Origin: Thermofilum pendens Hrk 5
GTDB lineage: Archaea; Thermoproteota; Thermoprotei; Thermofilales; Thermofilaceae
Length of the DNA: 32,000 nt
NCBI RefSeq assembly: GCF_000015225.1
Contig: NC_008698.1
Coordinates: 1,740,001-1,772,000, forward strand
Direction: 5' to 3'
The first letter of the stretch is position 1, and each line of letters begins with the position of its first letter. Positions 1,577 to 21,795 of the stretch are shown here, one piece after another. The notes beneath the pieces are model-generated. The model was not told the origin of the DNA. It saw nothing but the letters and a program-made list of their open reading frames with translations, and ran no database searches. A program made the translations under genes and the position numbers.

Positions 1577-1584
1577 AAAGGGAC

Positions 1585-3161: not shown

Positions 3162-3185
3162 ACAAAAGCACCGGTATAAAAAAGG

Positions 3186-3431
3186 CTACTTTTTAGCAGT
3201 TACCTTTATAACGGCCTTTATGACGTTCCCGTCTACCTTGGCGAGCTCGACGAGCTCGTTCTTGGTGCGCTCCACCCAGGCCTTGACGTCAGGCTCGAAG
3301 CCCGGATCCGTCGCCAGCACAATGATTAAGTCCCCGTTTTGGGCGTTGCGATAAGCCCGCGTAAGAGCGGAGATTGGCCCTGGGCACGCCATCCCACGGG
3401 CATCTACGGTGATTTCAGGCATCGCCACCAC
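3186..3431 (-). CDS. tusA: TusA/SirA-family sulfur carrier protein
   Basis: CPxP active-site motif in VDARGMACPGPISAL; about 80 aa. The true start is probably ATG at 3422, preceded by AGGTGG. The track start (GTG 3431) abuts the dsrE-like stop. Confidence 0.85.
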   Translation of the reverse strand: MVAMPEITVDARGMACPGPISALTRAYRNAQNGDLIIVLATDPGFEPDVKAWVERTKNELVELAKVDGNVIKAVIKVTAKK

Positions 3432-3839
3432 CTATATGAATATTACCTCGTATTCGGCGGTCTCCTTCATGAAGAACGTCGCTCCGACTATGTCGTCTAC
3501 TATCGGGTCTAGGTCCTCCTTCTTCAGGCCTAGGGCTTCGGCTATCAGGCTACACACGTAGACTTTCACGTCGCCTACCTCCTTCGCCTCGCGAACCATG
3601 TCGTACCAGCTCGGAGCCTTCATTTTTTCGAGCCCTTTGAGGAGCCCGGGTACCATGTCTTCAAATTCCTTGGGGAACCTGGGTTGAGGCTTGTTCTTGG
3701 TGAAGTAGGGAGTAGCGAAGCCTGTCACGAAGATCCTTACGGGGACGCCTAGGTTAGCGGCTGTCTGCGTGAGGACGCCTAGGGGTATGAACTTGTCCGC
3801 TGTCCCTGAGAACATTATTATTGCTAGACCTTTCGACAT
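3432..3839 (-). CDS. DsrE/DsrF-family (DsrE3-like) sulfurtransferase
   Basis: 135 aa with a DsrE-fold pattern (LAIIMFSGTADK...) and a conserved Cys in VYVCSLIAEALG. ATG at 3839 has AT-rich TATA-like sequence upstream. Immediately followed by tusA. Confidence 0.8.
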   Translation of the reverse strand: MSKGLAIIMFSGTADKFIPLGVLTQTAANLGVPVRIFVTGFATPYFTKNKPQPRFPKEFEDMVPGLLKGLEKMKAPSWYDMVREAKEVGDVKVYVCSLIAEALGLKKEDLDPIVDDIVGATFFMKETAEYEVIFI

Positions 3840-3905
3840 TGTTGGTCGAACATGTCTATATTCGCATACTTAAATGTTTTTATGTAAAAGTTTAGATACT
3901 TGTTT

Positions 3906-3924
3906 TGTTTTTCGCGAAAAAACA
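3906..3924 (-). terminator. Palindromic T-rich element downstream of the creatininase-family gene (candidate archaeal terminator)
   Basis: Perfect 14-bp palindrome TTTTTCGCGAAAAA at 3908-3921, extendable to 3906-3924 with one bulge. On the minus strand it reads TTGTTTTTTCGCGAAAAACAA and lies 32 nt after the stop at 3956. Confidence 0.4.
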
Positions 3925-3955
3925 ATCATTAAGGTGGACAGAAAACCCGGAAAAC

Positions 3956-4705
3956 TCAGAAAACGGTGCCTTCCAGGCTCTTCTTGTAGCGTAGGAATAC
4001 TTCCGCTACGAGGTCTGCAACCCTCTCGAAGTACCTCCGCGCCTCACCGGGCTTAAACTCAACATCGCCCTCGCCCTCCGAGTAGTTAATCACGGTTCCA
4101 GGGTAGGGGTAAGCCTTGACGGCCGCCGAGTATACGTACACCGCGCTAGGCGTGTAGAGGTTTCTCTTCACGAGCTCTGGTCGTATAGCGAGAACCATCG
4201 CAGTCTCGTCGGTAGCGGCGTGTCCACCCTCCTTGCCGAGAACCTCCCGCGTGACCCCCTTTTCGCGTGCAAGTATCCACCAGTCAACGACCATGACTGC
4301 CAGCTTGTTCCTAAGCCAAGCCTTCTTGGCGGCGTTGTCTAGTGCCTGGGTGTTCCCGCCGTGCCCGTTGAGTATCAGCCCGTACCTGAAGCCGTGAAGA
4401 CTCATGCTTTCCAGTATCTCGTAGACCAGTGCCTCCAGCGTTTCCGGCTGTACGCGCACCGACCCGAAGTAGCCGTGAAGACCCGTGGTGACACCGTAGT
4501 GCACTGGGGGGAGTAAAACGGCGTTAACCTTCTCGGCGACGTACTCTCCAAGCGCGCTCGGTATGAGCGTGTCCGTGCCTAGAGGGAGGTGTGTCCCGTG
4601 GGGCTCCACCGTGCCAACAGGCAGAACGAAGGAGTCGATCTTCCTCTTCTCTACCTCCTCCTTCAGCTCGACGTAAGAAAGCTCTTCCAGTTTCAGTACC
4701 GTCAT
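3956..4705 (-). CDS. Creatininase-family amidohydrolase (possible ArfB-type formamide hydrolase)
   Basis: Family metal-ligand motifs VEPHGTHLPLGTD, LNGHGGN and GGHAATDETA; 249 aa. A TATA-like TTTAAGATAA lies about 37 nt upstream of the ATG. The ArfB assignment is only a family-level possibility. Confidence 0.85.
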   Translation of the reverse strand: MTVLKLEELSYVELKEEVEKRKIDSFVLPVGTVEPHGTHLPLGTDTLIPSALGEYVAEKVNAVLLPPVHYGVTTGLHGYFGSVRVQPETLEALVYEILESMSLHGFRYGLILNGHGGNTQALDNAAKKAWLRNKLAVMVVDWWILAREKGVTREVLGKEGGHAATDETAMVLAIRPELVKRNLYTPSAVYVYSAAVKAYPYPGTVINYSEGEGDVEFKPGEARRYFERVADLVAEVFLRYKKSLEGTVF

Positions 4706-4745
4706 CCCTATCGAGTGAGAAAGAGTGCAGCCTTATCTTAAACCT

Positions 4746-5816
4746 TTAGACGGGTATCGCTATAACGTTCCTCCAGGGCGCCGAGAGCTCGAGCTCCTCG
4801 CCTACCTGCGGGTAGTACGTGTTCGGAAGGTACGCTATCAGGGACGCCTTCCCAACCTTCAGCCTGACCTCCGTCCTGTCGCCAAGGAACATCACGAAGT
4901 CCACGGTTCCCTTCACGGTGTTTGGCTCTCCCCGCTGCCCCCCAACGGTGAACACTTCCGGTCTTACCACGACGGCAACCTTCCCGACGAGGTTCTCAGC
5001 TACGGGTACCGCTTTGACGTCAATGCCTAGCTCCTCTACTCTCACCACCACGTATCCCTCCCCCCTCTCGACGACTTCTCCCTTGTAGATGTTGCTCCTG
5101 CCAAGGAACTCCGCCGTGAAGAGGTTCGTAGGCCTGAAGTAGACCTCCCTCGGGTGTCCGTACTGGAGGACCCTGCCCTTGTCCATCACTGCTATCTTGT
5201 CGCTTATGCTCATCGCCTCTAGCTGGTCGTGAGTGACGTACACAGTGGTTATTCCGAGCGATTTCTGGATGCGCTTTATCTCTTCCCTCATCTCTATCCT
5301 CAGCTTCGCGTCAAGGTTGCTGAGAGGCTCGTCGAGAAGGAGTACTTTCGGCTGCACGACTAAAGCCCTTGCAAGCGCTACCCTCTGCTGTTGTCCGCCG
5401 CTTAGCTGGAGCGGGTACCTGTCCTCGAGTCCTTCAAGCCTAACGAGGCTCAACGCCTCCTTTACCCTTCGCTCGATCTCCTCGTCCGTCAGCCTTAGCT
5501 GCTTCTTCCTTATCCTCAGACCGTAGGCAACGTTCTCGAAGACGGTCATGTGGGGCCAGAGCGCGTAGTTCTGGAAGACCATCGCGGTTTCCCTCATGTA
5601 CGGCTTGAGGAACGTTACGTCCTCGTCGTCGAAGTACACTCTCCCCTCGTCGGGGACCTCGAAGCCCGCTATTATCCTGAGGGTCGTCGTCTTACCGCAA
5701 CCGCTGGGCCCGAGAATGGTGAATAGCTCGCCGTCGTTTATCTCCAGGTTCACGTTGTCGACGGCTTTTACCGCGCCGTAGACTTTCGTGACGCCTTTAA
5801 GGGTTATCCTGGTCAT
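4746..5816 (-). CDS. ABC transporter ATP-binding subunit (FbpC/PotA/MalK type with C-terminal regulatory beta-domain)
   Basis: Walker A GPSGCGKTT, signature LSGGQQQR, Walker B LLLDEPLS, H-loop YVTHDQ. About 120-aa C-terminal TOBE-like extension. Confidence 0.92.
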   Translation of the reverse strand: MTRITLKGVTKVYGAVKAVDNVNLEINDGELFTILGPSGCGKTTTLRIIAGFEVPDEGRVYFDDEDVTFLKPYMRETAMVFQNYALWPHMTVFENVAYGLRIRKKQLRLTDEEIERRVKEALSLVRLEGLEDRYPLQLSGGQQQRVALARALVVQPKVLLLDEPLSNLDAKLRIEMREEIKRIQKSLGITTVYVTHDQLEAMSISDKIAVMDKGRVLQYGHPREVYFRPTNLFTAEFLGRSNIYKGEVVERGEGYVVVRVEELGIDVKAVPVAENLVGKVAVVVRPEVFTVGGQRGEPNTVKGTVDFVMFLGDRTEVRLKVGKASLIAYLPNTYYPQVGEELELSAPWRNVIAIPV

Positions 5817-5828
5817 CCCATCACCACC

Positions 5829-8030
5829 TCACACCCCTATAAACGCGTACCTCTGCTTAAAGATTTTAACCACGATTAGTATTGCGACCAGCTGTATCAG
5901 TATCAGCAGGACACCCATAGCCGCCGCCACCTGGACGCCCACGGGGGATCCGCCCTTGTAGACGTTCATCATATAGTAGGTCATCGGGGCCTGCGACGGG
6001 TTGAAGTTCCCTATCGTTATGCTCGTACTCACTTCTGTGGCCATGTAAATGAAGCCGAGGACAGCCCCCGAGAATACGTAGGAAATTATGTACGGGAGGA
6101 CGACTCCGAATATAACCTTCGAGCGGCTGGCGCCCAGGTTCAGCGCCGCCTCCTCTAGCCCCTCGTGTACCTGCTGGAAGCCCGCGAAGACGGAGCGCAC
6201 GACGTACGGTAGCTTCCTGATGCTGTACGCTACCACGAGGACGACCCAGGCCTGGAAGGCTCCTATGGACGCGGGGTCCAGCGGCGTACCCGCGAAGAAC
6301 GTCGTGAAGAAGTAGTAGTAGCCGAGTGCTATGACGAGCCCGGGGATCGCCAGCGGTATCGTTGCGAGGGTGTCGAGCACGTTTGAAAGCCACGAGACCT
6401 TAACCCTGCTCACGCTGTAGCCCACCATTATCGCGAGTACGACGGCTACGAGCACGGATATCGTAGCGTACATCAGCGTGTTCCTTATGTAGGTGAATAT
6501 GCCGGGGTCGAGGAACAGCTTCTCGAAGTAGTCCAGGGTGAAGCCAGCGAGGCTTAGGGAGAAGCCCCTCGGAGGCATCACGTTGAAAGCTAGGAGGAAA
6601 ACCCCAATCTGGGGGAAGACAGTTACCAGGACGAAAGGCACCACCAGGAGGTATATCGCCGCGAGTGCCAGGGGCCCGGCGGGCCTCTGCCTGGAGACGA
6701 GACGACCACCCCTGCTTATCATGGCGTAGCTCCTCATCCCCACGTAGTTCCTTATCGCGAGGAAGCCCAGGACAGCGATGAAGAGCATTACTAGCCCGAG
6801 TGCCGCGGACTCCGGGGAGACTATGCCGGTCTGGGTCACGAAGCCCTTGAAGATCTGCGCGCTCATGAGGTTCCACTCCTGGAATATCAGAGGAGCTCCT
6901 ACGTCCTCCAGGCTGAATATGTACACTATTATCGCTCCAGCGACTATGCCGGGGAGCGCTAGGGGGAAGGTCACCGTCCTGAAGAGCAGGAAGCCCTTGG
7001 CTCCCAGGTTCTCGCCTTGCTCCTCCGTGCTCGGGTCAACGTTGAGAAAAGCGCTGTAGGCGTTGAGGTATACTATTGGGTAGAAGGAGATTATCTGCGC
7101 CAGCGCCACCCCCACGAGGCCGTCTACCCTCACGCTCCACCCGAACAGCTTCGACGTGATCATTGATATCGGGCCGTACTCGCTGAAGAGAATCTTGACG
7201 ACGTAGGAGTTCACGAATGGCGTTACGAACAGGGGTATCATCGAGAGTATGCGGAGGAGCTCTTTTCCCGGGAAGCTGTACCTAGCGATCACGAACGCCA
7301 CTGCGACTCCGAGCACGGTTGCAACCACCGTTACTACGAGCGCGTTGAGGAGGCTGTTGAGCAGTATACCGTAGTTCAGGCCCTTCACCACGTAGAGCGT
7401 CCCCTCGCCGTAGGGTAGCTGGAAGACCGCCTGCTCCCCGGGTAGCGTCTCCAGCCTGACGTAGTCCCTCGACGTGAATATCCGCTGAAAGTTGGCGTAC
7501 CATGGTAGCCCCGCCGGGGCCTGGAAGGCGTGTAGGAGCACCAGGAGTATCGGTACCACGAGGAACACTACGAGGGCAACCGAGCTGAAAACCATGAAAA
7601 ACCACATTACCGGGTCCAGCTGGTAGAAAAGCGCCTTCAGCCTCCTCGACAACGGCAGCGCCCTGCCCCTCGCCCTGCGGGCTTCCCGGAGGTACCTAGC
7701 CTTTTCGAGCGCGTAGCCCGCGATGGAAGCTCCCAGGAGTGGTGCCAGGAAGATCCCCACGGCTCTCGGCAGGGACGGTATCGACGCCAAGGCTACGAAG
7801 AGGTTGTAGAGGAGCGAGAACACGGAGAGAAAGCTGAGCCCGGAGCTGAACTTAATCCACCTGTAGTCGTAGCCCAGCGCCACTAGGAGCAAGCCTACCG
7901 CTAGGCCGAGCGCGGTGAACAAGTTGTCTACCAGTACGTTCGCGAGCGAGAAGTTGTAGAGCACGATGTACACCACTGCGAGGGCTATCCCGGACACCCA
8001 CACGCTTTTCTTCGAAACCCTTTTCACCAA
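5829..8030 (-). CDS. ABC transporter permease, fused double-domain (FbpB/ThiP type) with an extra N-terminal membrane region
   Basis: 733 aa and highly hydrophobic. Two EAA-loop-like segments (TEEQGENLGAKGFLLFRTVTFP and LEEAALNLGASRSKVIFGVVLP) indicate two tandem permease domains. About 140 additional N-terminal residues contain about 4 predicted TM helices. TTG/GTG start at 8030/8027. Confidence 0.9.
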   Translation of the reverse strand: MVKRVSKKSVWVSGIALAVVYIVLYNFSLANVLVDNLFTALGLAVGLLLVALGYDYRWIKFSSGLSFLSVFSLLYNLFVALASIPSLPRAVGIFLAPLLGASIAGYALEKARYLREARRARGRALPLSRRLKALFYQLDPVMWFFMVFSSVALVVFLVVPILLVLLHAFQAPAGLPWYANFQRIFTSRDYVRLETLPGEQAVFQLPYGEGTLYVVKGLNYGILLNSLLNALVVTVVATVLGVAVAFVIARYSFPGKELLRILSMIPLFVTPFVNSYVVKILFSEYGPISMITSKLFGWSVRVDGLVGVALAQIISFYPIVYLNAYSAFLNVDPSTEEQGENLGAKGFLLFRTVTFPLALPGIVAGAIIVYIFSLEDVGAPLIFQEWNLMSAQIFKGFVTQTGIVSPESAALGLVMLFIAVLGFLAIRNYVGMRSYAMISRGGRLVSRQRPAGPLALAAIYLLVVPFVLVTVFPQIGVFLLAFNVMPPRGFSLSLAGFTLDYFEKLFLDPGIFTYIRNTLMYATISVLVAVVLAIMVGYSVSRVKVSWLSNVLDTLATIPLAIPGLVIALGYYYFFTTFFAGTPLDPASIGAFQAWVVLVVAYSIRKLPYVVRSVFAGFQQVHEGLEEAALNLGASRSKVIFGVVLPYIISYVFSGAVLGFIYMATEVSTSITIGNFNPSQAPMTYYMMNVYKGGSPVGVQVAAAMGVLLILIQLVAILIVVKIFKQRYAFIGV

Positions 8031-13155: not shown

Positions 13156-13803
13156 TCATTGCTTTACAATCTTCTCGAGCGCTATCCTTGAAACTGAAAA
13201 CGCTAGACCCTCGGGGTCTACCCATACGGGGTACACGCTGCTCCTCCCGAAGGCGTAGTCGCCGGTAAGCCTGGAGACGTACGGCTTTACGAGGGGGAAG
13301 CTGTCCCCCAGGAGTCTGGCTACCCCTTCTCGTATCCCTGCGGGAACCCTTTCCCTCGGGATCTCCTCCAGGAGGTTACCTAAGACAGACCTCAACCTCG
13401 CCGTCCAGACATCCGCGACGAAGCCGTTGTACAGCTCGCCCGGCGAGGAGAGGTAGCCCGGGATCGCGCCTATGTCCAGGCTTACCTCGCCCTTCTCGGA
13501 GACGTAAGCTACCCTACCGCAGTCCACCGTGTATACTCTTAGGCATACGATGTAGCCTCCCGAGAGGTTCCTGGCGGCCGTTACTCTGAAGTAAGCCCTC
13601 CTACCCTCGTATAGCACCGAAACCGTCCTGCTACCCGTCTTCACAGGGGTTATGGGGAGCCCTGCGAGCGCGGCTTTCACGAGCGCCTCCACGGCTATCT
13701 CCGACAGGCTTCTCCCAACGATGGACTCTACGAGACCCGCTACGTCGTCGCCCGAAGCCTGCACACCTTTCCAGGTAACCCTCAAAGCTTTATCTTTTCC
13801 CAT
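13156..13803 (-). CDS. Hypothetical protein, coupled to xpd (no recognisable domain)
   Basis: 215-aa ORF with coding-like composition. ATG 13803 overlaps the xpd stop (13782) by 22 nt. An alternative GTG at 13764 would leave a 17-nt gap. I recognised no motif. Confidence 0.6.
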   Translation of the reverse strand: MGKDKALRVTWKGVQASGDDVAGLVESIVGRSLSEIAVEALVKAALAGLPITPVKTGSRTVSVLYEGRRAYFRVTAARNLSGGYIVCLRVYTVDCGRVAYVSEKGEVSLDIGAIPGYLSSPGELYNGFVADVWTARLRSVLGNLLEEIPRERVPAGIREGVARLLGDSFPLVKPYVSRLTGDYAFGRSSVYPVWVDPEGLAFSVSRIALEKIVKQ

Positions 13804-15635
13804 GGAGGTTCAACAGAGTCGAGATCCTGCGACTTTACCTCCACCGCGAGCTCCCGCACGTAGTCCGGAAGCAACCCCATGTAGTTCCTATACCTTGAAT
13901 CGCCTAGAACTATGACCGCTTGGTCCCTCGGGCTTCTCAACGCCCTCCCGATAGCCTGGCTAGCCCTCCTCAGGGCTGGGTACACGTACGCGTAAAGCCT
14001 CCCCTTCTCGGGGCCGTAGAGCTCCTCGTAGTACTTTATGTATAGGTTTGTCTTCGTCGTAGGCTTCTCGAACGGGATACCCGCCAGGAAGACGCACATT
14101 AGCTCCTCTCCCGGGAAGTCCGCGCCCTCTGCGAACCTGCCTCCCATCGGGGCCAGGAGGAGCCCCCTCCCCTCCGCGGCGAGGTTTTTGAACTTCTCGA
14201 GAGCTGCGCCTGCCTCCTGCCCGGACATATCCCTCCGCTCAACGACAACCTCGTAGCCGAGCCTTTCGGCCTCCTCCTTTAAGCCAGCCTCGAGAAGCCT
14301 CTGCAGAACCCTGTAGCTAGCAGTGAACACGGCGCTGTTCCTCTTAACCCTGCCTAAAACCCTGCCGACAGCCGAGACGTACCTCTCGGCCATCTCCTCG
14401 GAGAGCTCCTCACCCCGCGTCGTCAGGTCCTTTACGAGGTAGACAGAGGCGTTTGTCTCGTCGTAGGGGCTCGGAACGGTTACCGGGGTGTAGTCGCTTA
14501 ACCCCACAGTCTCGGCGAAGGCTTCGATCGGCGAGAGAGTCCCGGACATGAAGATCACCCTTCTAAACCTCCTCCAGACGCCCGAGAGTATCTCCCCGGA
14601 CCTCATGTCCCATATATTGAGGTGGACTCTGCCGTCGACCTTCTCGGCTATGAGCGCTATGCCCTTCACGCCTTCGAGGTCGACGGCCTTCCGGAGGAAT
14701 TCCGCCAAGTGGTGGGCGCTACTGCGGGGCCTCGCGCCGCTCCTGTACCTCTTCTCCCTGACAAGTTCGCCGAGCCGCAGAGTCTTTTCGATGATGTCTT
14801 CGTCGAAGCCGTCGAGGAGGTCCTCCGCACGGAAGACCTCGGACCCCTCCTCCGGTAGGGAGCCGTACTTCTCCCTAACCTTCGCCTCGAGCGCCTCCAC
14901 GAACCCGTACACCTCTTCGTCCCCCATCTCGGCGGCTTCCTCCTTGGCCCTCGCGATAGTCCCCTCCGTCACGGTGTCTCCGCCGAGGTTGAGTTCTTGG
15001 AGGTTGTGCGCCTCGTCGACTACGAGTATGGACTGGCTAGTCGGGAAAGCTCCTCTAAGGGTCCACGAGAGATCTTCGTCCACGACGTAGTTGTAGCTCA
15101 GGGCGACGAGGTCCGCGACTTTGAGCAACTCCCGCTGGAGGAAGTACGGGCAGACCCCCTCTCTTCTCGCCCACTCGAACACATCCCTGTAAGTTAGGGC
15201 GCCCCTCTCAAGGAGCTCGGAGTAGTCCACGCCTTCCTGCAGCCTCCTGTAGTACTTGCACCTCCTCCTTTCGCGGCTACATATGTACGATACCTCGCTG
15301 TAGTCGAGTTGCCCGCCCCTCTCCCCGGCCAGCAGGCACATGTCCTTCTTCCCGCGCAACCCGACTGCGACGAACCTCGCGCCCGACTTCTCCCTGAAGA
15401 CCCTGAACTCCTCGACCGGCCTGTCGGTCTCGCTACCCGTCCTCACCGCCCATACGACCCTCCCCCCGCGCTCCATGAATGGTAGAAGGGCGTAGATGAC
15501 GACCGGTGTCTTGCCGAAGCCCGTAGGCGCCTCCAGCACGACGTTCCCGCGTTTCAACAGCTCTACGATCTTCTCGGCAACCTCCAGCTGGTGCCTCCTG
15601 GGCTTGTAGGGAAACGCGTACCTGCCGGTAACCAA
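13782..15635 (-). CDS. xpd: XPD/Rad3-type 5'-3' DNA helicase with FeS domain
   Basis: Walker A EAPTGFGKT; DEAH box VVDEAHNL; four FeS-domain cysteines (KDMCLL, YICSRERRRCKYY, GVCPYF); C-terminal helicase motif QAIGRALRSPRD. 617 aa. TTG start has a TATA-like GTTTTTAAGG about 30 nt upstream. Confidence 0.93.
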   Translation of the reverse strand: MVTGRYAFPYKPRRHQLEVAEKIVELLKRGNVVLEAPTGFGKTPVVIYALLPFMERGGRVVWAVRTGSETDRPVEEFRVFREKSGARFVAVGLRGKKDMCLLAGERGGQLDYSEVSYICSRERRRCKYYRRLQEGVDYSELLERGALTYRDVFEWARREGVCPYFLQRELLKVADLVALSYNYVVDEDLSWTLRGAFPTSQSILVVDEAHNLQELNLGGDTVTEGTIARAKEEAAEMGDEEVYGFVEALEAKVREKYGSLPEEGSEVFRAEDLLDGFDEDIIEKTLRLGELVREKRYRSGARPRSSAHHLAEFLRKAVDLEGVKGIALIAEKVDGRVHLNIWDMRSGEILSGVWRRFRRVIFMSGTLSPIEAFAETVGLSDYTPVTVPSPYDETNASVYLVKDLTTRGEELSEEMAERYVSAVGRVLGRVKRNSAVFTASYRVLQRLLEAGLKEEAERLGYEVVVERRDMSGQEAGAALEKFKNLAAEGRGLLLAPMGGRFAEGADFPGEELMCVFLAGIPFEKPTTKTNLYIKYYEELYGPEKGRLYAYVYPALRRASQAIGRALRSPRDQAVIVLGDSRYRNYMGLLPDYVRELAVEVKSQDLDSVEPPWEKIKL

Positions 15636-15765
15636 GCCTACCGGCTATCCCGTGCACGCCACCTTAAAAACGTAACGAACTCGTTGAAAGCCTCCGACTG
15701 CCAAATTCTTAGCACAAGGTTTTTACACTTTGGGGAGATGCGTTTTTCGCGCGTCGGGGAGGAAC

Positions 15766-16830
15766 GTGAAGGCTAAGGTTTGGCGAGTGGATCCCTCGGA
15801 GCCTGATGCTAAGAGCATCGAGGAGGCGGCGTCCATACTCAGGAAGGGGGGCGTGGTAGCCTTCCCCACGGAGACCGTGTACGGGCTTGGCGCCGTGTAC
15901 CATATGCGTGACGCGGTTATCAGGGTGTTCAAGGTTAAGAGGAGGCCCCCCGACAACCCGCTCATACTGCACATTTCGAGCTTTTCGCAAATATACACGC
16001 TGGCATCCGAGGTCCCCGAGGCTGTGCACAGGCTCGCAGAGAAGTTCTGGCCCGGACCCCTGACAGTGGTCCTCCCGAAGACGAGCAGGGTTCCCTACGA
16101 GGTTACCGGGGGCCTCGAGAAGGTTGCCGTCCGGATGCCGGCGCACAACGTCGCGCTGAGGCTGATAGAGGCTGTCGGAGACCCTATCGCGGCTCCCAGC
16201 GCGAACCTATCCGGGAGACCTTCGCCGACCACAGCCCAGCACGTTCTAGCCGATCTAGGCGACGAGATAGACGGCGTGCTCGACGCCGGGGAGACACTGT
16301 ACGGCGTTGAAAGCACGGTGATAGACCTCACCGCCGACCCCCCTGTTCTCCTGCGCCCCGGGGCGGTGCCATTAGAGGAGGTCGAAAAGGTTCTAGGCAA
16401 GGTGTGCGTGCCGGCCTTCGCGCGGGGGCTTGGCGAGGCTGAAAGGGCTCTCGCGCCCGGCACGAGGTACCGCCACTACTCCCCGAGGGCCCAGCTGGTG
16501 CTCGTCGAGCTGAAGGACTACTCGGACCTATCCAAGTTGGTAGACAGGGTTAAGAGGCTGGTTGCGGAGAACGCTGGCAGGGGGTTAAGAGTCGGCGTGC
16601 TCTGCACGGACGAGACCCGGGAGCACTACTCGGGGCTGGGTGCTGTCGTCCTGAGCCTCGGGTCTCGGAGAGACCCCTTCGGCATAGCTAGGAGGCTGTA
16701 CTCGTCCTTTAGGGAGATGGACTCACTAGGCGTGGACGTAATCGTCGCGGAGGGGGTCGACGAGAGGGGGCTGGGGCTAACCATCATGAACAGGATGCGG
16801 AAAGCCTCGACGAAGAGAGTGGTGGTCTAG
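15766..16830 (+). CDS. sua5: L-threonylcarbamoyladenylate synthase Sua5/TsaC (YrdC plus Sua5 domains)
   Basis: Motifs VVAFPTETVYGLG, RPPDNPLILHI and SANLSGRPSPT, plus a C-terminal Sua5 domain. I prefer GTG 15766 as the start because GGGGAGG lies at 15756-15762 and a TATA-like GGTTTTTACAC lies at 15718-15728. That TATA position would put the track start (TTG 15730) upstream of the likely transcription start site. Confidence 0.9.
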   Translation: MKAKVWRVDPSEPDAKSIEEAASILRKGGVVAFPTETVYGLGAVYHMRDAVIRVFKVKRRPPDNPLILHISSFSQIYTLASEVPEAVHRLAEKFWPGPLTVVLPKTSRVPYEVTGGLEKVAVRMPAHNVALRLIEAVGDPIAAPSANLSGRPSPTTAQHVLADLGDEIDGVLDAGETLYGVESTVIDLTADPPVLLRPGAVPLEEVEKVLGKVCVPAFARGLGEAERALAPGTRYRHYSPRAQLVLVELKDYSDLSKLVDRVKRLVAENAGRGLRVGVLCTDETREHYSGLGAVVLSLGSRRDPFGIARRLYSSFREMDSLGVDVIVAEGVDERGLGLTIMNRMRKASTKRVVV

Positions 16831-17519
16831 CCGCCCCTCCTCTCCGGAGACCTCCCCAGCGCCCTTAGGACGTCGCTGTCCGTTACCTCGGAGAAGTCTC
16901 GGTAGAACTCGCCCACCGCGTAGAGAATGAGCGGAACCGTGACGGCGACAACCTTGTCCGCGTACCTGGACACGACGCCCAGCACGTCCCGGGCGATAAC
17001 GGGCGTAGCTACTACCACCTTCTCGGCTCCCGCCTTCCTGGCGGCAATGCTGGCAGCGATCACCGTTGCACCGGTGGCCACCCCATCGTCTACGACTACC
17101 GCCGTGAAGCCTCTCAGGTCGAGGGCGGTTCCGCGGAACTTCTCGACGTAGCTGGCAACGACCCTTCTCTGGTACTCTACCTCGCTCCTTATGTAGTCCT
17201 CGCCGATGCCTAAAGCATCGACTATCTCCCTGTTGATGTAGACCGCGTCTAGCTCGGCGACGGCGCCTATGCCTAGCTCGGGGTTCCCGGGCGCTCTGAG
17301 CTTCCTCGAGACAACGACATCCAGCTGTACGCCCAGAGCCTCGCTCACGGATTTAGCGACCACAACCCCTCCCCTGGGAATGCCTAGAACCTTCACGTCG
17401 GGACCGCCTACCCCCTCCGCGAGGAGCTTCTCGGCCAGTTGCTTCCCGGCGTCCTCCCTGTTGCGAAAAACCCTAACCACAATAGTCCACCTTGGGGTTT
17501 CCCGATAAACGTTTCGCAC
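16827..17519 (-). CDS. Predicted phosphoribosyltransferase (COG1926-like)
   Basis: PRPP-binding loop VVVDDGVATGATV; N-terminal FRNREDAGKQLAEKL. The likely true start is GTG 17480, preceded by AAGGTGG; the track start is GTG 17519. There is a 4-nt convergent overlap with the sua5 stop. Confidence 0.85.
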   Translation of the reverse strand: MRNVYRETPRWTIVVRVFRNREDAGKQLAEKLLAEGVGGPDVKVLGIPRGGVVVAKSVSEALGVQLDVVVSRKLRAPGNPELGIGAVAELDAVYINREIVDALGIGEDYIRSEVEYQRRVVASYVEKFRGTALDLRGFTAVVVDDGVATGATVIAASIAARKAGAEKVVVATPVIARDVLGVVSRYADKVVAVTVPLILYAVGEFYRDFSEVTDSDVLRALGRSPERRGG

Positions 17520-17610
17520 ATCATGCAGGAGAAGGGGGAACCGTGCGGTCAGCGACGGAGTTGTAGCTCACCAATCGCTACGAACCCCGAGACTTCATCA
17601 CGCAACCCGT

Positions 17611-17632
17611 AAAAAGTGGTTATTCAGAAAAA
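17611..17632 (-). terminator. Two T5 tracts after the CBS-protein gene
   Basis: The minus strand reads TTTTTCTGAATAACCACTTTTT starting 3 nt after the stop at 17635. Confidence 0.4.
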
Positions 17633-17634
17633 GT

Positions 17635-18762
17635 TTACTCCAGGATCTTCCTGAGCCTTGCTAGCGAGATCCTCTTCTCCCTCTTCTTTTCCTTCGACTT
17701 CGAGAAAACCTTGTACGCCGAGTCTAGCGCTTCGTACACTGTCTCGACAGCGTCCCACCCAGAGGACCTCGCGCTATAGCTGTCGACGTCGAGCTTGATG
17801 GATACTATCGCGTCGTACCTCCTCCTGTTCCCCGACTTCTCCCTAGACTTTAGCACTACGCTCATTTCGAGTAACCTAGCCCTCCTCGAGACCTCCGAAG
17901 CTATATCCAGGCTCTTCCTGTATATGAGGTTCCTCTGGATGAAGTCCAGCTCGTCCACCCCTTCTACCCTTAGAGGGACCTTTGCTTCCTCGATCGCGGG
18001 CAGAAGCCTCCTCAGTAGCAGGTAGGGCGATATGATCCCGTAGACCTTCCCGGAGGAGTCGACGACGACAGACCCCTCGGCTATGTCTTCCACCGAGGGG
18101 TAGCCGTCTACGTGAACCGTCCTAAAGTTCGCTGTAGCTATTTTCGCGACCGGCTGTTCGAGGAAGTAGGAGGTCTCGCCCTTCACCTCGCCCAGCCTCT
18201 CACGCCTCAGGGGAGTATTGTACACGAAGTTCACTAGATCGTAGACTCTGACCACCCCCACGGCCTTCCCGTCCTCGGCTACCGGTACGAGCCTCAAGCC
18301 CAGGTCCACGATGAGCTTCCTAGCCTTCTCCAAGGGATCGCTGGGGGCCAGTGGGTCGAGCCTGTAGGCAATATGCCTCGCGGTAACCCTCGAAGAGAGA
18401 CCCATACCTGCGAGCAACCTTCTCGCCGAGACTATCCCCACGACCCTTCCACCCTCCACTACTGCTAGCCCGGGTTGCCCCGTCTTGACGAGCATCCTCG
18501 CTACCTCTGTCAAGGGGAGGGACGGCTCCACCACGGGCGCCTTTTCGAGGACACTCCCAAGCTTCGTGCCCGCTTGGTACCTTGTCCTCAAAAGCGAAAA
18601 GATAGACACTATCCCCGCGTACCTCCCCTCCCCGTCGACCACGGGCACTGCGGGGAGCTCAAACCTCCACATGCGTTCAGCGGCAACAGAAACGGTGTCG
18701 TTTAAGCCTAGGGGGTCTATCTTCGTGAAAACCCCCTGGGAAGGGGGCCCAGTAAAGCTCAT
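17635..18762 (-). CDS. Four-CBS-motif (two Bateman modules) protein with a C-terminal HPF/RaiA-like domain
   Basis: CBS-type segments: AVPVVDGEGRYAGIVSIFSLL, GLAVVEGGRVVGIVSARRLL, LVPVAEDGKAVGVVRVYDLV, VVVDSSGKVYGIISPYLLL. C-terminal aa 262-362 (nt 17677-17979) follow a strand-helix-strand-strand-strand-helix pattern ending WDAVETVYEALDSAYKVFSKSKEKKREK. ATG start has the TATA box TTTTTATATC 33 nt upstream. Confidence 0.85.
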   Translation of the reverse strand: MSFTGPPSQGVFTKIDPLGLNDTVSVAAERMWRFELPAVPVVDGEGRYAGIVSIFSLLRTRYQAGTKLGSVLEKAPVVEPSLPLTEVARMLVKTGQPGLAVVEGGRVVGIVSARRLLAGMGLSSRVTARHIAYRLDPLAPSDPLEKARKLIVDLGLRLVPVAEDGKAVGVVRVYDLVNFVYNTPLRRERLGEVKGETSYFLEQPVAKIATANFRTVHVDGYPSVEDIAEGSVVVDSSGKVYGIISPYLLLRRLLPAIEEAKVPLRVEGVDELDFIQRNLIYRKSLDIASEVSRRARLLEMSVVLKSREKSGNRRRYDAIVSIKLDVDSYSARSSGWDAVETVYEALDSAYKVFSKSKEKKREKRISLARLRKILE

Positions 18763-18785
18763 AGCATGTTAGGATTTGCAGGAGA

Positions 18786-18795
18786 GATATAAAAA
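18786..18795 (-). promoter_or_regulatory. TATA box of the CBS-protein gene
   Basis: The minus strand reads TTTTTATATC; its 5' end lies 33 nt upstream of ATG 18762. Confidence 0.55.
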
Positions 18796-18892
18796 CCTGA
18801 GCATGCAGTGCGTGAGTATTGTGCACGGCACTTACCTTGGTCTTTGTGCGCGAGCGTCGTGGCGCGGAATAATTTTCTGTACACAATAAGGG

Positions 18893-18904
18893 TTTTTTAT
18901 TAAG
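18893..18904 (+). promoter_or_regulatory. TATA box of the ferredoxin-aor operon
   Basis: TTTTTTATTAAG begins 29 nt upstream of GTG 18922, a spacing consistent with a leaderless or short-leader transcript. Confidence 0.55.
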
Positions 18905-18921
18905 TGAACTGTTGGTAAGGT

Positions 18922-19317
18922 GTGCCTAGGCTGGTAATAGTAGACGTGGATAAGTGCGTGGGATGCATGTCCTGCATGTTCGCATGCTCGAGGAGGTTTG
19001 GCGAGGGTGGGCTCGCGAAGTCCGCGATACACGTTTCGAGCATAGGGGGCGTGGAGAGAGGGTTTAAGGTCGTCGTGTGCAGGGCTTGTGAGAACCCTCC
19101 CTGCGCGGCTGTATGCCCTACGAACGCCCTGGTTAGGAGGGAGGGAGGGGGAGTCGTGTTAAACCCGAGTAAGTGCGTGGGATGCGGTAACTGCGCGAGG
19201 GCTTGCCCCATAGGGGCCGTGCAGTGGGACTACGAGAGCATGAAGCCCATAATATGCGTTCACTGTGGCTACTGCGTCAACTACTGCCCGTACGGCGTTT
19301 TATCCCTTTCGAGGTGA
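18922..19317 (+). CDS. Polyferredoxin-like protein with four [4Fe-4S]-type motifs (AOR electron-transfer partner)
   Basis: CVGCMSCMFAC, CRACENPPCAAVCP, CVGCGNCARACP, CVHCGYCVNYCP. 131 aa. The stop lies 6 nt before the aor ATG, and GAGG overlaps the stop codon. Confidence 0.9.
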   Translation: MPRLVIVDVDKCVGCMSCMFACSRRFGEGGLAKSAIHVSSIGGVERGFKVVVCRACENPPCAAVCPTNALVRREGGGVVLNPSKCVGCGNCARACPIGAVQWDYESMKPIICVHCGYCVNYCPYGVLSLSR

Positions 19318-19323
19318 GGCGGG

Positions 19324-21111
19324 ATGTCGGAGCCTATACCTAGGAAGGTGCTCTACATAGACCTTTCCTCGAAGAGATACTGGGTGGAGGACAGGCTGGA
19401 CCTCTTCGAAGAGTACCTAGGCGGGACCGGCGTCGCCACGAAGCTCCTCGAGGAGGAGCTCCCCAGGAACGTTGACCCGTTGGGGCCGGAGAACGTCATC
19501 GTGTTCGCGGTGGGGCCTTTCAACGCGCTGTACCCGACGGCCTCAAAAACAGTTGCGATGTTTAAGAGCCCGCACACGGGTAACCTCGGCGAGAGCCACG
19601 CGGGCGGTAGGAGCGCGGTGGCGATAAGGCTCGCTGGGTACGGCGCCATAGTGATCAAAGGGGCGAGCGACCTGCCCGTGTGGGTGTCGGTTCACGGGGA
19701 CAAGGTGTACTTCAGGGATGCGAGAGCCATATGGGGCATGACTAGTAGCCACACGGTTGGGCGGATTCTGCGCGAGGTAGAGCCCGGGTCCGGAGTAAGG
19801 ACGATAATGCGCATAGGTAGAGCCGGGGAAAGGATGATCAGCTACGCGAACGTGATCACGGAGACTTACAGGCACTTCGGCAGGCTGGGGCTGGGCGCCG
19901 TCTTCGGAAGCAAAAAGCTGAAAGCACTAGTTGTGAGCGGGAAAGGCTCCGTAAGGGTGGTGGACAGAAAGGCCTACAGGGAAGTCTACGACAAGATCTT
20001 CAAGCTGATAGTAGACAGTCCCCTCATGAAGAAGTACCACGAGATAGGGACACCTATAAACGTTAGGGTTCTGAACGCCCTCGGAGCTCTACCCTCCCTG
20101 AACCTCCAGAAGGCGAGCATAGACTCGGCTGACGCGATCTCCGGAGAGTACATCGCGACGAACTACCTTGGGAGGAGGGTCTCGTGCGCACACTGCCCGG
20201 TTGCGTGCATACACTTAGCCGTGGTGAGGGAGCCGTACGAGGAGGAGCCGTACTTCTACAAGACCACGTTCATCGGGTACGACTACGAGCCGATATACGC
20301 GCTCGGCTCGATGCTCGGCGCCGGCGAAGCCAGAGACGTGTTGAGGCTTATAGACCTCGTGGACTCATACGGCCTAGACGCTATGACCACGGGAGTCGTG
20401 CTCGCATGGGCCACTGAGGCGCTCAGCAGGGGGATAATCAGCGAGAAAGACCTCGCTGGGGTGAAGCTACGATGGGGCGACTACAACGCGTACATGAAGG
20501 CCGTTCAGTACATCGTCGAGCAACCGACCGAGCTGTACAGGGACCTCGCTAGGGGTGCCTTGTACGCGGCCAGGAAGTGGGGTGGAGAAGACTTCGCCCT
20601 CTCCTTCGGCGGAAACGAGATGGCCGGGTACCACACGGGCCCCGCCGCGTACGCTAACTTCGCGTTCGGGGCTAGGCACAGCCACCTCGACAGCGCGGGC
20701 TACGACCTGGACCAGGAGACTATAGGGAGGACCCCGGAGCCCGGCGAGCTCGTTAGGAGGCTCTACGAGGAGGAGTCCTGGCGCCAAGTCCTGACGAGCT
20801 TAGTCGTCTGCCTATTCGCCAGGAAGGTGTACAAACCCGAAGTGGTCTCCGAGGCGTTGAAGCCTCTGGGGATAGAGATGAGCGTAGACGACCTTTACAG
20901 CCTGGGCAGAAAGATCTACAGGGAGAAGTACAGGCTGAAGCTCAGGGAGGGCTTCAGGCCAGAGGACGTCTCCTTCCCGAGGAGGATCTTCGAGACGCCG
21001 ACCCCCCACGGGCTCCTAAGTCCGGAGTACATGGAGAAAGTCAAGCTCGAATACGTGCGCCTAATCAGGGAGGTAACCGGGGAAGGCGCGTCAGGGCACC
21101 ACGACGGGTAG
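19324..21111 (+). CDS. aor: Aldehyde:ferredoxin oxidoreductase family (tungstopterin enzyme)
   Basis: AOR N-terminal domain pattern (YLGGTGVATKLL, GPFNALYPTASK, GNLGESHAGG). [4Fe-4S] ligand motif CAHCPVAC plus a distal Cys (VVCLFAR). 595 aa. The subfamily (AOR/FOR/GAPOR/WOR) cannot be resolved by eye. Confidence 0.92.
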   Translation: MSEPIPRKVLYIDLSSKRYWVEDRLDLFEEYLGGTGVATKLLEEELPRNVDPLGPENVIVFAVGPFNALYPTASKTVAMFKSPHTGNLGESHAGGRSAVAIRLAGYGAIVIKGASDLPVWVSVHGDKVYFRDARAIWGMTSSHTVGRILREVEPGSGVRTIMRIGRAGERMISYANVITETYRHFGRLGLGAVFGSKKLKALVVSGKGSVRVVDRKAYREVYDKIFKLIVDSPLMKKYHEIGTPINVRVLNALGALPSLNLQKASIDSADAISGEYIATNYLGRRVSCAHCPVACIHLAVVREPYEEEPYFYKTTFIGYDYEPIYALGSMLGAGEARDVLRLIDLVDSYGLDAMTTGVVLAWATEALSRGIISEKDLAGVKLRWGDYNAYMKAVQYIVEQPTELYRDLARGALYAARKWGGEDFALSFGGNEMAGYHTGPAAYANFAFGARHSHLDSAGYDLDQETIGRTPEPGELVRRLYEEESWRQVLTSLVVCLFARKVYKPEVVSEALKPLGIEMSVDDLYSLGRKIYREKYRLKLREGFRPEDVSFPRRIFETPTPHGLLSPEYMEKVKLEYVRLIREVTGEGASGHHDG

Positions 21112-21795
21112 ATCCGGGTCGTCGAGAACTATTTCTGACTGGGACGGGTCGTAGTGGAGGGCGACAGCTCTCAGCACGACTCCCTTTTTCTTAGCCTCTC
21201 CGAGCAGGACCGCTACCTCGGGGTCCCCCTCCCCGTACGGCTTGAACGCCTTTACGCCCGGCAACGCCGCGACGAAAATTATCATAGCCTTGCCGCCGCC
21301 CTCCGCCAGTCTTATCAGCTCGGAGATCTGCCTCCTCCCTCTCAGAGTCGGGCAGTCGGGGTACATCGCGTAGGAATCCTCCCTCAGCACCGCGCTCTTA
21401 ACCTCGACGAAGACCTCCTCTCCGTTGCACACCAGCAGGTAGTCTAGCCTGGACGAGCCAAGCCGCGGAGCCCTAGCCTTCACGCTGCACCCGCTCCACG
21501 GCTCGATACCCTGCTCGAAGAGACTTTCAAGGGCGTTCATCTGCAGGGCGGTGTCTATCAGGGCGGCTGACCCGGCGTCCTCGACCGCGAATAGCCTGTA
21601 AGCCGTCTTGGAGCGCTCCCTTCTGAGGCAGAAAGCCCTGCGCCCAGGGACCAGGAACTCTAGAAGCCTCCCGGTGTTGTTTATGTGGGCGCGGTAGGCC
21701 CGGCCCTCCACCTCTACGAGCACGACGAACCTGTTCTCCCTTCTGATCACCCTGCACTCGGAGGGTTCGGGGAGTCTTACGAGCCTCCAGGTCAT
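21091..21795 (-). CDS. sfsA: SfsA-family protein (sugar fermentation stimulation protein homologue; nuclease-like fold)
   Basis: N-terminal RENRFVVLVEVEGRAYRAHINNTGRL and central FVEVKSAVL motifs typical of SfsA. 234 aa. 4-nt start/stop overlap with the upstream gene. Confidence 0.88.
   Translation of the reverse strand: MTWRLVRLPEPSECRVIRRENRFVVLVEVEGRAYRAHINNTGRLLEFLVPGRRAFCLRRERSKTAYRLFAVEDAGSAALIDTALQMNALESLFEQGIEPWSGCSVKARAPRLGSSRLDYLLVCNGEEVFVEVKSAVLREDSYAMYPDCPTLRGRRQISELIRLAEGGGKAMIIFVAALPGVKAFKPYGEGDPEVAVLLGEAKKKGVVLRAVALHYDPSQSEIVLDDPDLPVVVP

Follow-up and report, generated by a model that had tools for sequence, protein, structure and literature searches.

A CBS domain protein of Thermofilum pendens that is very probably orthologous to HibA, a ribosome hibernation factor of archaea

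What does an archaeal protein do that carries four CBS motifs and, behind them, a domain resembling the bacterial ribosome hibernation factors HPF and RaiA? Archaeal ribosome hibernation was an open question until 2024-2026, and a 375-aa open reading frame of Thermofilum pendens raises it for this organism. A first-pass annotation, made from the sequence letters, had read the product as a fusion of four CBS motifs with an HPF/RaiA-like fold that could couple energy charge to the silencing of ribosomes. In the follow-up described here, which used profile searches, AF2 models, Foldseek searches and comparison with published factors, the observation itself is confirmed and the structural interpretation is supported.

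The gene and its characterised homologues

The open reading frame lies at 17635..18762 on the minus strand, begins with ATG and encodes 375 aa followed by a stop codon. It is a real gene, whose product matches, with 100% identity, a protein recorded for Thermofilum pendens as "CBS domain-containing protein". By charge count the protein is basic, with a pI of 9.6, and homologues of 67% identity have been named 'CBS domain-containing protein/ribosome-associated translation inhibitor RaiA' by JGI. A TATA-box-like element, TTTTTATAT, was read by eye at 18787..18795 on the minus strand, ~28 nt upstream of the ATG; from the usual geometry of archaeal promoters it is a putative promoter for a leaderless or short-leader mRNA. 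A scan for sigma-70 promoters found nothing, these being a bacterial promoter type that is irrelevant to archaea. Just past the stop codon, two T5 runs (17611..17632, minus strand) form a putative archaeal termination signal, and the gene is apparently monocistronic. Within the window, by which we mean the whole 32-kb (32,000-nucleotide) stretch of DNA analysed, a phmmer search of the six-frame open reading frames detected no other CBS-module gene. The gene order SfsA-AOR-ferredoxin-HibA-PRTase-Sua5 is common only to T. pendens and Infirmifilum and is missing from the other hibA loci that come with flanking DNA, so the context adds no functional clue for the T. pendens gene.

When the PDB was searched with phmmer, the full-length protein matched chain 9sr9_H, the HibA protein of Pyrococcus abyssi (E 4.7e-15), through one uninterrupted alignment of aa 35-366 with residues 33-381 of that chain. 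The second full-length match (PDB 9l96/9l98/9l9c/9l9v) was a 406-aa CBS protein chain, 9l96_a, at E 1.3e-10. The match to HibA and the Foldseek probability of 1.00 obtained for the C-terminal domain make up a signal far beyond chance.

HibA of P. abyssi (Pa-HibA; Q9UYR4/PAB0961; PDB 9sr9-9srf and 9t7h; Madru et al., Nat Commun 2026, PMC13324472) has been studied by cryo-EM on native and reconstituted ribosomes and by in vitro translation inhibition (PMC13324472). In the cryo-EM structures its HPF domain plugs the 30S mRNA/tRNA channel while the CBS module sits on the tRNA sites and the 50S peptidyl-transferase centre (PTC), and the terminal helix and tail, which extend as far as the mRNA exit channel, touch h44, h24, h28, h23, uS7 and uS11 (PMC13324472). 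Deletion of hibA gives a recovery defect with loss of 70S (PMC13324472). The same architecture was described independently in Haloferax volcanii as AHA (HVO_2384; Souza et al., bioRxiv 2026, PMC12934967). AHA is the HibA family under another name, with an AMPK-gamma-related CBS tetrad, an HPF domain and a loop 3 of CBS3 that inserts into the PTC (PMC12934967). The belief voiced in the first-pass annotation, of an involvement of CBS proteins in archaeal hibernation, is thus borne out, as the fusion of four CBS motifs to an HPF domain (CBSx4-HPF) has been characterised under both names, with cryo-EM, genetics and in vitro translation. This architecture was already published in 2025-2026, and the T. 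pendens gene is an uncharacterised orthologue of a known family.

We consider it very probable that the T. pendens protein is an orthologue of HibA (= AHA) in the functional sense as well, with an HPF/RaiA domain that would bind the 30S subunit and a CBS disc that would lie on the 50S subunit, locking idle 70S ribosomes. The likeness to HibA consists of the full-length alignment and of three details treated below, namely a post-CBS3 segment of equal length, two conserved glutamates and insertions of similar length. The differences are an identity of ~15% in the HPF domain, a length of 375 aa against 392 aa in Pa-HibA, the residue at the CBS4 Asp position, a tail motif LARLRK in Thermofilales, and a host that belongs to the Thermoproteota. 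The haloarchaeal AHA, for its part, is acidic, unlike the basic T. pendens protein.

The family is widespread. With a profile of the C-terminal domain, 268 clusters (50% identity) are retrieved, and among the best 150 of these, 94 are at least 330 aa long with the domain in C-terminal position, 88 of the 94 with a detectable CBS module. In the published work the CBSx4-HPF architecture has been reported for ~47% of archaeal genomes, and the survey set included that of T. pendens. Ribosome binding and translation inhibition are experimentally known only for HibA of P. abyssi and T. barophilus and for AHA of H. volcanii; the literature searched contained no experiment on any HibA from Thermoproteota.

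The CBS module and nucleotide sensing

The four CBS motifs claimed in the first-pass annotation are recovered by Pfam CBS (PF00571) as four stretches with E 3.4e-25 and a score of 88.6 bits (cutoff 24), the best of which covers aa 75-118. The AF2 model likewise has four beta-alpha-beta-beta-alpha units in this module, at pLDDT >90, in keeping with the disc of two Bateman modules that the four tandem motifs of HibA and AHA form. On the minus strand, motif 1 (aa ~12-60; 18583..18729) is placed by Pfam CBS and by AF2 helix 24-34, strands 38-42 and 48-53 and helix 54-60, and motif 2 (aa ~67-120; 18403..18564) by Pfam CBS and AF2 elements. Motif 3 (aa ~128-182; 18217..18381) comprises helix 144-154, strands 158-163 and 166-172 and helix 173-182 of the AF2 model, from whose elements motif 4 (aa ~201-253; 18004..18162) was also placed. 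A Pfam IF3_N match inside CBS3 (aa 144-183) stayed below threshold, at 18.5 bits against a cutoff of 26.9, and was dismissed as spurious.

A Foldseek search of the PDB with the T. pendens model returned SriA (3e-19), SriD (4e-17) and Dri (1.6e-16) as the top matches of the CBS module, followed by MJ1225 and AMPK-gamma, with CBS-tetrad matches spanning ~260-300 columns. Matches to SriA, Dri, MJ1225 and AMPK-gamma structures are a likeness to AHA as well. Dri, from Pyrobaculum calidifontis (PDB 9e7f/9e6q), and SriA-D or ARC-A/P, from Methanosarcina and Methanolobus, are archaeal ribosome hibernation factors built on CBS tetrads, and Dri is the known factor of Thermoproteota. Unlike HibA and AHA, these factors have no HPF domain; the small subunit is blocked instead by a second CBS tetrad (Dri) or by separate proteins (Sri/ARC), and the CBS module of Dri binds the PTC in the orientation opposite to that of HibA/AHA. 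A pattern of mutual exclusion between HibA and such CBS factors (Dri, Sri and CM-1/2/4/5) has been published. An identity with Dri was rejected because in the T. pendens protein one CBS tetrad precedes an HPF-fold domain, in place of two tetrads; the match to Dri, over ~283 columns, covers the CBS module only.

Behind CBS3 lies an extended loop (aa 183-200, TPLRRERLGEVKGETSYF; 18163..18216, minus strand) that is the equivalent of the HibA 'PTC loop' and the AHA 'loop 3'. The loop aligns with Pa-HibA residues 189-205, and pLDDT falls below 50 at aa 188-194. The segment of aa 181-203 measures 23 residues, which is both the family mode and the length found in Pa-HibA. E192 and E196, which are the two most conserved glutamates of the loop, match E197 and E201 of Pa-HibA, where they contact PTC nucleotides, and 7 of the 14 contact positions in the loop are similar to Pa-HibA. 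A linker, LPAIEEAKV (aa 254-262; 17977..18003, minus strand), joins the CBS module to the C-terminal domain; its low model confidence (pLDDT <50 at aa 257-259) fits a hinge of the kind that lets the CBS module of HibA swing.

The four motifs differ in the Asp that binds ribose. CBS1, with the motif G-h-h-S-x-x-S, has S56 instead, and in CBS2 the position is occupied by Arg115. CBS3 keeps the canonical residue as D175, which is near-invariant in the Thermofilales clade; 68 of 96 family members share the Asp. CBS4 reads GIISPYL in T. pendens against GILTVKD in Pa-HibA, with Leu248 where 75 of the 96 family sequences have the typical Asp, and with S245 earlier in the motif; none of the 23 Thermofilales-clade sequences of the alignment has Asp in this column, which holds Leu or another residue. 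Since CBS1, CBS2 and CBS4 are without the Asp, at most one canonical adenosine site is predicted in T. pendens. In AHA, two AMP are bound, at sites 3 and 4, whereas the T. pendens protein keeps the canonical Asp in CBS3 only. The CBS4 Asp position corresponds to one of these two AMP sites.

These residues bear on whether the protein could act as a nucleotide-gated switch, in which occupancy of the CBS tetrad by AMP or ATP would directly control ribosome binding and release, and energy charge would set the hibernating fraction. The CBS module of Pa-HibA binds AMP, ADP and ATP with Kd values of 12 uM, 65 uM and 113 uM (PMC13324472), and AHA on the ribosome holds two AMP at the CBS3/CBS4 junction, beside the loop that inserts into the PTC (PMC12934967). 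Release by ATP has been reported for the related ARC factors, and D175 is kept in T. pendens. Against this, 5 mM AMP or 5 mM ATP left both binding and conformation distribution unchanged in reconstituted Pa-HibA:70S complexes (PMC13324472), and the CBS4 Asp is lost across the T. pendens clade, CBS1 and CBS2 being without it too. We regard direct gating as possible but doubtful, and, judged from these homologues, the link from energy charge to ribosome silencing put forward in the first-pass annotation appears to be backed only partly by published data. The sequence of the clade also allows a less likely proposal, that Thermofilales HibA is a nucleotide-sensing variant. Having lost the Asp of site 4 and retained site 3 (D175), it might take up only one adenylate, with altered selectivity, or else work without regard to energy charge; we hold this to be unlikely.

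The HPF/RaiA-like C-terminal domain

The C-terminal part of the protein comprises an HPF/RaiA-like core of the order beta1-alpha1-beta2-beta3-beta4 (aa 263-337; 17752..17976, minus strand), delimited by AF2, Foldseek and profile matches, and a long terminal helix, alpha2, that carries a basic tail (aa 338-375; 17638..17751, minus strand). In the AF2 model, strand 264-267, helix 274-294, strands 297-308, 314-324 and 328-335 and helix 338-374 follow one another, and a model of the isolated domain (pLDDT 87.5) has the same order. The first-pass annotation had placed the domain at aa 262-362, equated with nt 17677-17979, which is arithmetically correct, and the peptide segments that it quoted are present in the translation and coincide with predicted secondary-structure elements. 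The fold that it had proposed emerged from the Foldseek search of the PDB with the isolated domain, in which ranks 1-32 were all HPF, RaiA, YfiA or pY, with E 2.8e-5 to 1e-3, probability 1.00 and target-normalised TM-scores (TMt) up to 0.76. The match to E. coli HPF (2rql) had TMt 0.74 and an rmsd of 2.6 A. HibA entries were absent among the best Foldseek matches of both the whole and the C-domain model (PDB entries to 2026-04-08).

In sequence, the relationship was seen for the family. A profile of the C-domain family, run against the PDB, reached P. abyssi HibA at E 2e-6 and then E. coli HPF at E 7.5e-4. In this alignment the terminal helix of the T. pendens family falls on alpha2 of E. coli HPF, 'DMYAAIDGLIDKLARQLTKHKDK', a tail that had been quoted correctly in the first-pass annotation. 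Searched one by one, 9 of 17 family members match Pfam Ribosomal_S30AE (PF02482), the best at E 1.7e-7. Neither the whole T. pendens protein nor its C-terminal 114-120 aa in isolation gave a Pfam or NCBIfam S30AE match, the isolated part giving none even at E<=10, so that homology is shown via the family profile and the fold. When the profile was confined to Thermofilaceae, without two distant S30AE-positive sequences, it reached HibA at E 2e-3 and E. coli HPF only at E 0.38, which shows that the HPF match of the wider profile is partly driven by these two sequences. With the T. pendens domain itself below S30AE and the Thermofilaceae profile at that value, the sequence link to bacterial HPF rests on bridging sequences and fold. 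The S30AE signal expected from the first reading was therefore obtained for the family and not for the T. pendens domain itself, which shares the S30AE fold and is homologous through intermediates, with no direct Pfam S30AE match.

Compared with bacterial HPF/RaiA (YfiA, pY; PF02482), the domain has the same fold and order of elements (TMt 0.6-0.76 over ~100 columns), and the sequence of beta3-beta4-alpha2 in the T. pendens family can be aligned to that of E. coli HPF. By homology with HibA, the domain would also bind at the same site of the 30S mRNA/tRNA channel. Bacterial HPFs differ in having no CBS module, the short forms being standalone proteins of ~95-115 aa and the long forms carrying a dimerisation domain instead. 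The T. pendens domain has a beta2-beta3 hairpin 5 residues longer than that of E. coli HPF, at the place of archaeal insertion 2, and its alpha2, which bears a basic tail, is much longer. Both archaeal insertion segments have the modal length of the family, 14 and 21 residues; those of Pa-HibA measure 15 and 22.

A net charge of +8 falls within the last 25 aa. The basic alpha2 positions K351, K355, K359, R361 and R364 follow the family consensus; W336, K357, R361 and R369 are invariant in the Thermofilales clade, whose consensus includes KEKKRERRxxLARLRK. Of the 29 residues by which the Pa-HibA C-domain contacts 16S rRNA, T. pendens has 6 in identical and 9 in similar form, most of these columns being variable in the family. 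With only six identical contacts, the details of binding are not transferable residue by residue from Pa-HibA.

This low contact conservation is one of the points in favour of a different reading, in which the protein is a CBS-tetrad regulator acting mainly away from the ribosome, as an HhpR-like transcriptional regulator or as a protein that is sequestered by, or regulates, partners in DNA replication or recombination, and the HPF-like domain is a diverged relic. It would be consistent with a weak match to NCBIfam HhpR (NF053603; E 1.7e-7, 30.7 bits) and with pull-down experiments, mentioned in the literature, that link HibA of Thermococcales to proteins of replication and recombination. However, the HhpR score is far under the family cutoff of 520, covers only aa 102-195 and reflects generic CBS similarity, and HhpR is a member of another CBS-module family, CM-3. 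The HPF-like domain, moreover, has a confident fold model, and its conservation in the Thermofilales clade, strong also for the basic helix and tail and for the PTC loop, argues for purifying selection on the ribosome-binding parts. We judge a mainly non-ribosomal regulator to be very improbable. Least probable of all is that the C-domain is a generic dsRNA-binding-like alpha/beta fold with a convergent resemblance to HPF, for although the fold search also returns dsRBD structures (Loquacious, Staufen, DHX9), with E 1e-2 to 7e-2, and the T. pendens domain alone has no S30AE Pfam match, the dsRBDs align over ~65-70 columns with lower TM-scores as against ~100 columns for the 32 top matches, the profile search and PF02482 tie the family in sequence to HibA and E. 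coli HPF, and the solved Pa-HibA domain occupies the HPF site on the 30S subunit.

Proposed function and significance

Domain architecture, fold, membership in the HibA family by full-length homology, a PTC-type loop and insertions of archaeal length are established here for the T. pendens protein. As a HibA orthologue, and by analogy with the characterised proteins, it would use the basic HPF/RaiA-fold domain with its long basic helix and tail to bind the 30S subunit at the decoding centre, within the mRNA/tRNA channel, in the manner of bacterial HPF/RaiA. The flexible linker would tether the N-terminal disc of four CBS motifs, which would fill the vacant tRNA sites of the 50S subunit, and from there the extended loop behind CBS3 could enter the peptidyl-transferase centre. 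Both domains may jointly hold the idle 70S ribosome inactive and protected in stationary phase or under stress, and the protein would be displaced on a return to growth. An adenine nucleotide, most likely AMP, is the probable ligand of the CBS module, in the interface between CBS3 and CBS4. For the T. pendens protein, the binding of ribosomes and of nucleotides and the inhibition of translation are predicted from characterised homologues.

The CBS-HPF fusion, in which a bacterial-type hibernation module is combined with an AMPK-gamma-like nucleotide sensor, is an important discovery. Two independent groups have already published it, as HibA and as AHA, with structures, genetics and phylogenomics. 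The first-pass annotation deduced both fold and function correctly from raw sequence alone. What we add is modest: a cultivated hyperthermophilic crenarchaeon of the Thermofilales carries what we take to be a bona fide HibA orthologue, which is still annotated only as a 'CBS domain-containing protein'. The degenerate CBS4 nucleotide site of the Thermofilales clade could inform whether adenylate binding regulates HibA and, if true, altered nucleotide sensing would fall in a phylum for which Dri is the hibernation factor characterised so far.

The hibA-like ORF and its C-terminal domain

The hibA-like ORF lies at 17635..18762 on the minus strand of a window with 55-61% G+C and encodes 375 aa from an ATG start. 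The first-pass annotation had placed it exactly there, its nucleotide positions for aa 262-362 are arithmetically right, and all of the peptide segments that it quoted are present in the translation. The product is 100% identical to T. pendens database entry P0001, a "CBS domain-containing protein", and Pfam detects PF00571 (CBS) in four stretches (E 3.4e-25), in agreement with the four CBS motifs already recognized in the sequence. Neither Pfam nor NCBIfam returned a match to the isolated C-terminal 114-120 aa, even at E≤10. We also observed a sub-threshold Pfam match to IF3_N, the N-terminal domain of translation initiation factor IF-3, inside CBS3 (aa 144-183, 18213-18332, minus strand; 18.5 bits where the cutoff is 26.9, E 0.0022); a precomputed PF05198 label is also found on the homologue entry P0002. 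This match is probably a spurious alpha/beta similarity, though a curious one for a ribosome-binding protein.

From 25 aligned sequences, AlphaFold2 gave a confident full-length model (mean pLDDT 88, pTM 0.80) in which aa 188-194, a loop, and aa 257-259, a short linker, are of low confidence. The model contains four CBS units followed by strand 264-267, helix 274-294, strands 297-308, 314-324 and 328-335, and helix 338-374, which reproduces the strand-helix-strand-strand-strand-helix order predicted earlier. When the C-terminal domain was modelled alone (pLDDT 87.5) and compared with the PDB by Foldseek, ranks 1-32 were all HPF, RaiA, YfiA or plastid pY, mostly solved on ribosomes, which bears out the proposed HPF/RaiA-like fold. 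Examples include 6eri_BV (E 2.8e-5, TMt 0.73), E. coli HPF 2rql (TMt 0.74, rmsd 2.6 A) and Thermus thermophilus YfiA (TMt 0.76), with dsRBD folds ranking below these 32 and giving shorter alignments. In a Foldseek search with the full-length model, the CBS module best matched SriA (3e-19), SriD and Dri, which are ribosome-bound archaeal CBS-tetrad hibernation factors, followed by MJ1225 and AMPK-gamma. The same CBS relationships are given for AHA of Haloferax volcanii (PMC12934967). HibA entries were not among the best Foldseek PDB matches for either model.

Relationship to HibA and to bacterial HPF

When all PDB chains were searched with the single sequence, the protein matched Pyrococcus abyssi HibA (9sr9_H) in one full-length stretch (E 4.7e-15; aa 35-366 on residues 33-381) that extends through the C-terminal domain. 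The second-best match (E 1.3e-10) was 9l96_a, a 406-aa "CBS domain-containing protein" chain that occurs in entries 9l96, 9l98, 9l9c and 9l9v. It aligns with aa 42-199 and weakly with aa 190-348, and the C-domain profile matches it at E 0.018. Presumably this chain is a further HibA/AHA orthologue whose structure was solved on a ribosome; in the literature searched, no relevant paper cites the four entries.

Using the C-terminal domains of 17 sequences, the window protein plus 16 relatives, we made a profile that retrieved P. abyssi HibA from the PDB (E 2e-6) and then bacterial factors, namely E. coli HPF (E 7.5e-4 and 2.6e-3) and, more weakly, HI0257 (E 0.021) and YfiA/RaiA (E ~0.05). The alignment to the bacterial factors spans beta3-beta4-alpha2 and includes the E. 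coli HPF tail to which the domain had been likened. Individually, 9/17 of the profile sequences match Pfam Ribosomal_S30AE (best E 1.7e-7), with the window sequence not among them. In a control profile lacking the two most distant sequences, both S30AE-positive, HibA was still found (E 2e-3) while E. coli HPF fell to E 0.38. In sequence, this clade is thus linked to bacterial HPF only indirectly, by way of HibA and the bridging sequences.

Searching 1.84 billion proteins exhaustively with a profile gave 268 clusters at E≤1e-3. Among the best 150 of these, 94 are at least 330 aa long with the domain C-terminal, a CBS module being detectable in 88 of the 94, and 43 are shorter than 200 aa; these counts agree with the published picture of many fusions and fewer standalone HPF/RaiA-like proteins. 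We aligned the window protein and P. abyssi HibA (residues 33-381, reconstructed from the PDB search alignment) with the 94 full-length representatives, yielding 96 sequences. The segment after CBS3 that corresponds to the "PTC loop" has 23 residues in the window protein, equal to the family mode and to P. abyssi HibA, and both segments holding the archaeal-specific HPF-domain insertions are of modal family length. In E. coli HPF, by contrast, the beta2-beta3 hairpin is 5 residues shorter.

When atom-level contacts of P. abyssi HibA (Supplementary Data 1, PMC13324472) were mapped onto the window protein, 6 of 29 rRNA-contacting residues in the C-domain were identical and 9/29 similar, an identity no better than the ~15% of the domain overall, with most of these columns variable in the family itself. 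Similarity in the PTC loop extends to 7 of 14 positions, and the two best-conserved glutamates are kept (E192 and E196, equivalent to P. abyssi E197 and E201). The protein is basic (pI 9.6), with a net charge of +8 over its last 25 residues. Thermofilales sequences show strong conservation of the HPF domain and tail, with W336, K357, R361 and R369 invariant and a tail consensus that includes KEKKRERRxxLARLRK.

The CBSx4-HPF architecture has already been described, as Hib/HibA (bioRxiv October 2025; Nat Commun April 2026, PMC13324472) and as AHA (bioRxiv February 2026, PMC12934967). It is reported from 47% of 4,026 archaeal genomes, from a database that includes T. pendens Hrk5 (GCF000015225) (PMC13324472), and 3,160 AHA homologues are reported in 2,723 species (PMC12934967). 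Homologues with 67% identity carry the JGI label [quoted passage not shown]. The T. pendens gene is an orthologue, so far uncharacterised, of this published family of known architecture, and the literature searched contained no experiments on any Thermoproteota HibA. The interpretation first made from raw sequence was a good inference, supported by the HibA match, the AlphaFold2 model and Foldseek.

Genomic context

A phosphoribosyltransferase gene (16827-17519, minus strand) lies on the same strand as the hibA-like gene across a 115-nt gap, and the other flank holds a divergent ferredoxin/aldehyde:ferredoxin oxidoreductase pair. The oxidoreductase gene (19324-21111, plus strand) overlaps the convergent SfsA gene (21091-21795, minus strand) by 21 nt at 21091-21111, and Sua5 (15730-16830, plus strand) overlaps the phosphoribosyltransferase gene convergently by 4 nt at 16827-16830. 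Also farther away is a 617-aa XPD/Rad3-type helicase (13782-15635, minus strand; Pfam DEAD_2, HBB, Helicase_C_2) with a called TTG start, whose 5' end is overlapped by an alternative GTG ORF (15433-15657, minus strand). A TTTTTATAT element ~28 nt upstream of the hibA-like ATG and two T5 runs after its stop codon would fit an archaeal transcript that is monocistronic and either leaderless or short in its leader. No second CBS-module ORF, tRNA gene or Rfam match was found in the window.

We compared nine related loci from reference genomes of Thermofilales and near relatives; this neighbourhood is shared by only one of them, the closest, from an Infirmifilum sp. MAG (L001). There the order SfsA, oxidoreductase, ferredoxin, HibA, phosphoribosyltransferase, Sua5 is kept (971-6865 against 15730-21795), with identities of 78% for the oxidoreductase, 84% for ferredoxin and 64% for HibA. 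In the other Thermofilaceae loci with flanking DNA, none of the T. pendens neighbours adjoins the hibA-like gene. With one of nine loci sharing the neighbourhood, there is no conserved operon.

Proposed mechanism and nucleotide sites

The C-terminal domain of P. abyssi HibA occupies the 30S mRNA/tRNA channel like bacterial HPF, and its CBS module swings among three 50S positions, at the PTC, uL5 and the L1 stalk (PMC13324472). In the PTC state the module's long loop is wrapped around A2834 (PMC13324472), a universally conserved nucleotide that is A2602 in E. coli numbering (PMC12934967). HibA inhibits in vitro translation, and deletion of hibA in T. barophilus leads to a smaller 70S pool and delayed recovery from stationary phase (PMC13324472). 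H. volcanii AHA has the same arrangement, and its deletion strain shows reduced viability and depleted ribosomal proteins in stationary phase (PMC12934967). Based on these structures, the inhibition and the deletion phenotypes, we assign the same mechanism to the T. pendens protein, which very probably shares it: the C-terminal domain would sit in the 30S mRNA/tRNA channel and the CBS module on the 50S subunit, with its loop reaching the PTC.

A stronger idea in the first-pass annotation, that ribosome silencing is coupled directly to energy charge by the fusion, may hold but seems less likely than not. The HibA CBS module does bind AMP (12 uM), ADP (65 uM) and ATP (113 uM), but neither AMP nor ATP changed its ribosome binding in vitro (PMC13324472). 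In AHA, two AMP molecules occupy sites 3 and 4 (PMC12934967), and release by ATP is reported for ARC, a related two-protein system.

The T. pendens protein retains the Asp of the canonical ribose-phosphate motif G-h-h-[ST]-x-x-D in CBS3 alone (D175), the motif Asp being missing from CBS1 and CBS2 as well as CBS4. The CBS4 motif, GIISPYL (aa 242-248, within 18004-18162 on the minus strand), has Leu248 at a position that is Asp in 75/96 full-length family sequences, and Ser245 in place of the Thr that most of the family carries. This position is non-Asp (L, M, I, H or S) in 23/23 Thermofilales-clade sequences of a further alignment. Site 2 of AMPK-gamma likewise lacks the motif Asp and stays empty. 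Given this precedent and the Asp kept solely in CBS3, at most one canonical adenylate site is predicted in the window protein. The degenerate CBS4 site is the only lineage-specific point, and the retention of D175 alone points to just one canonical adenylate site for the Thermofilales clade.
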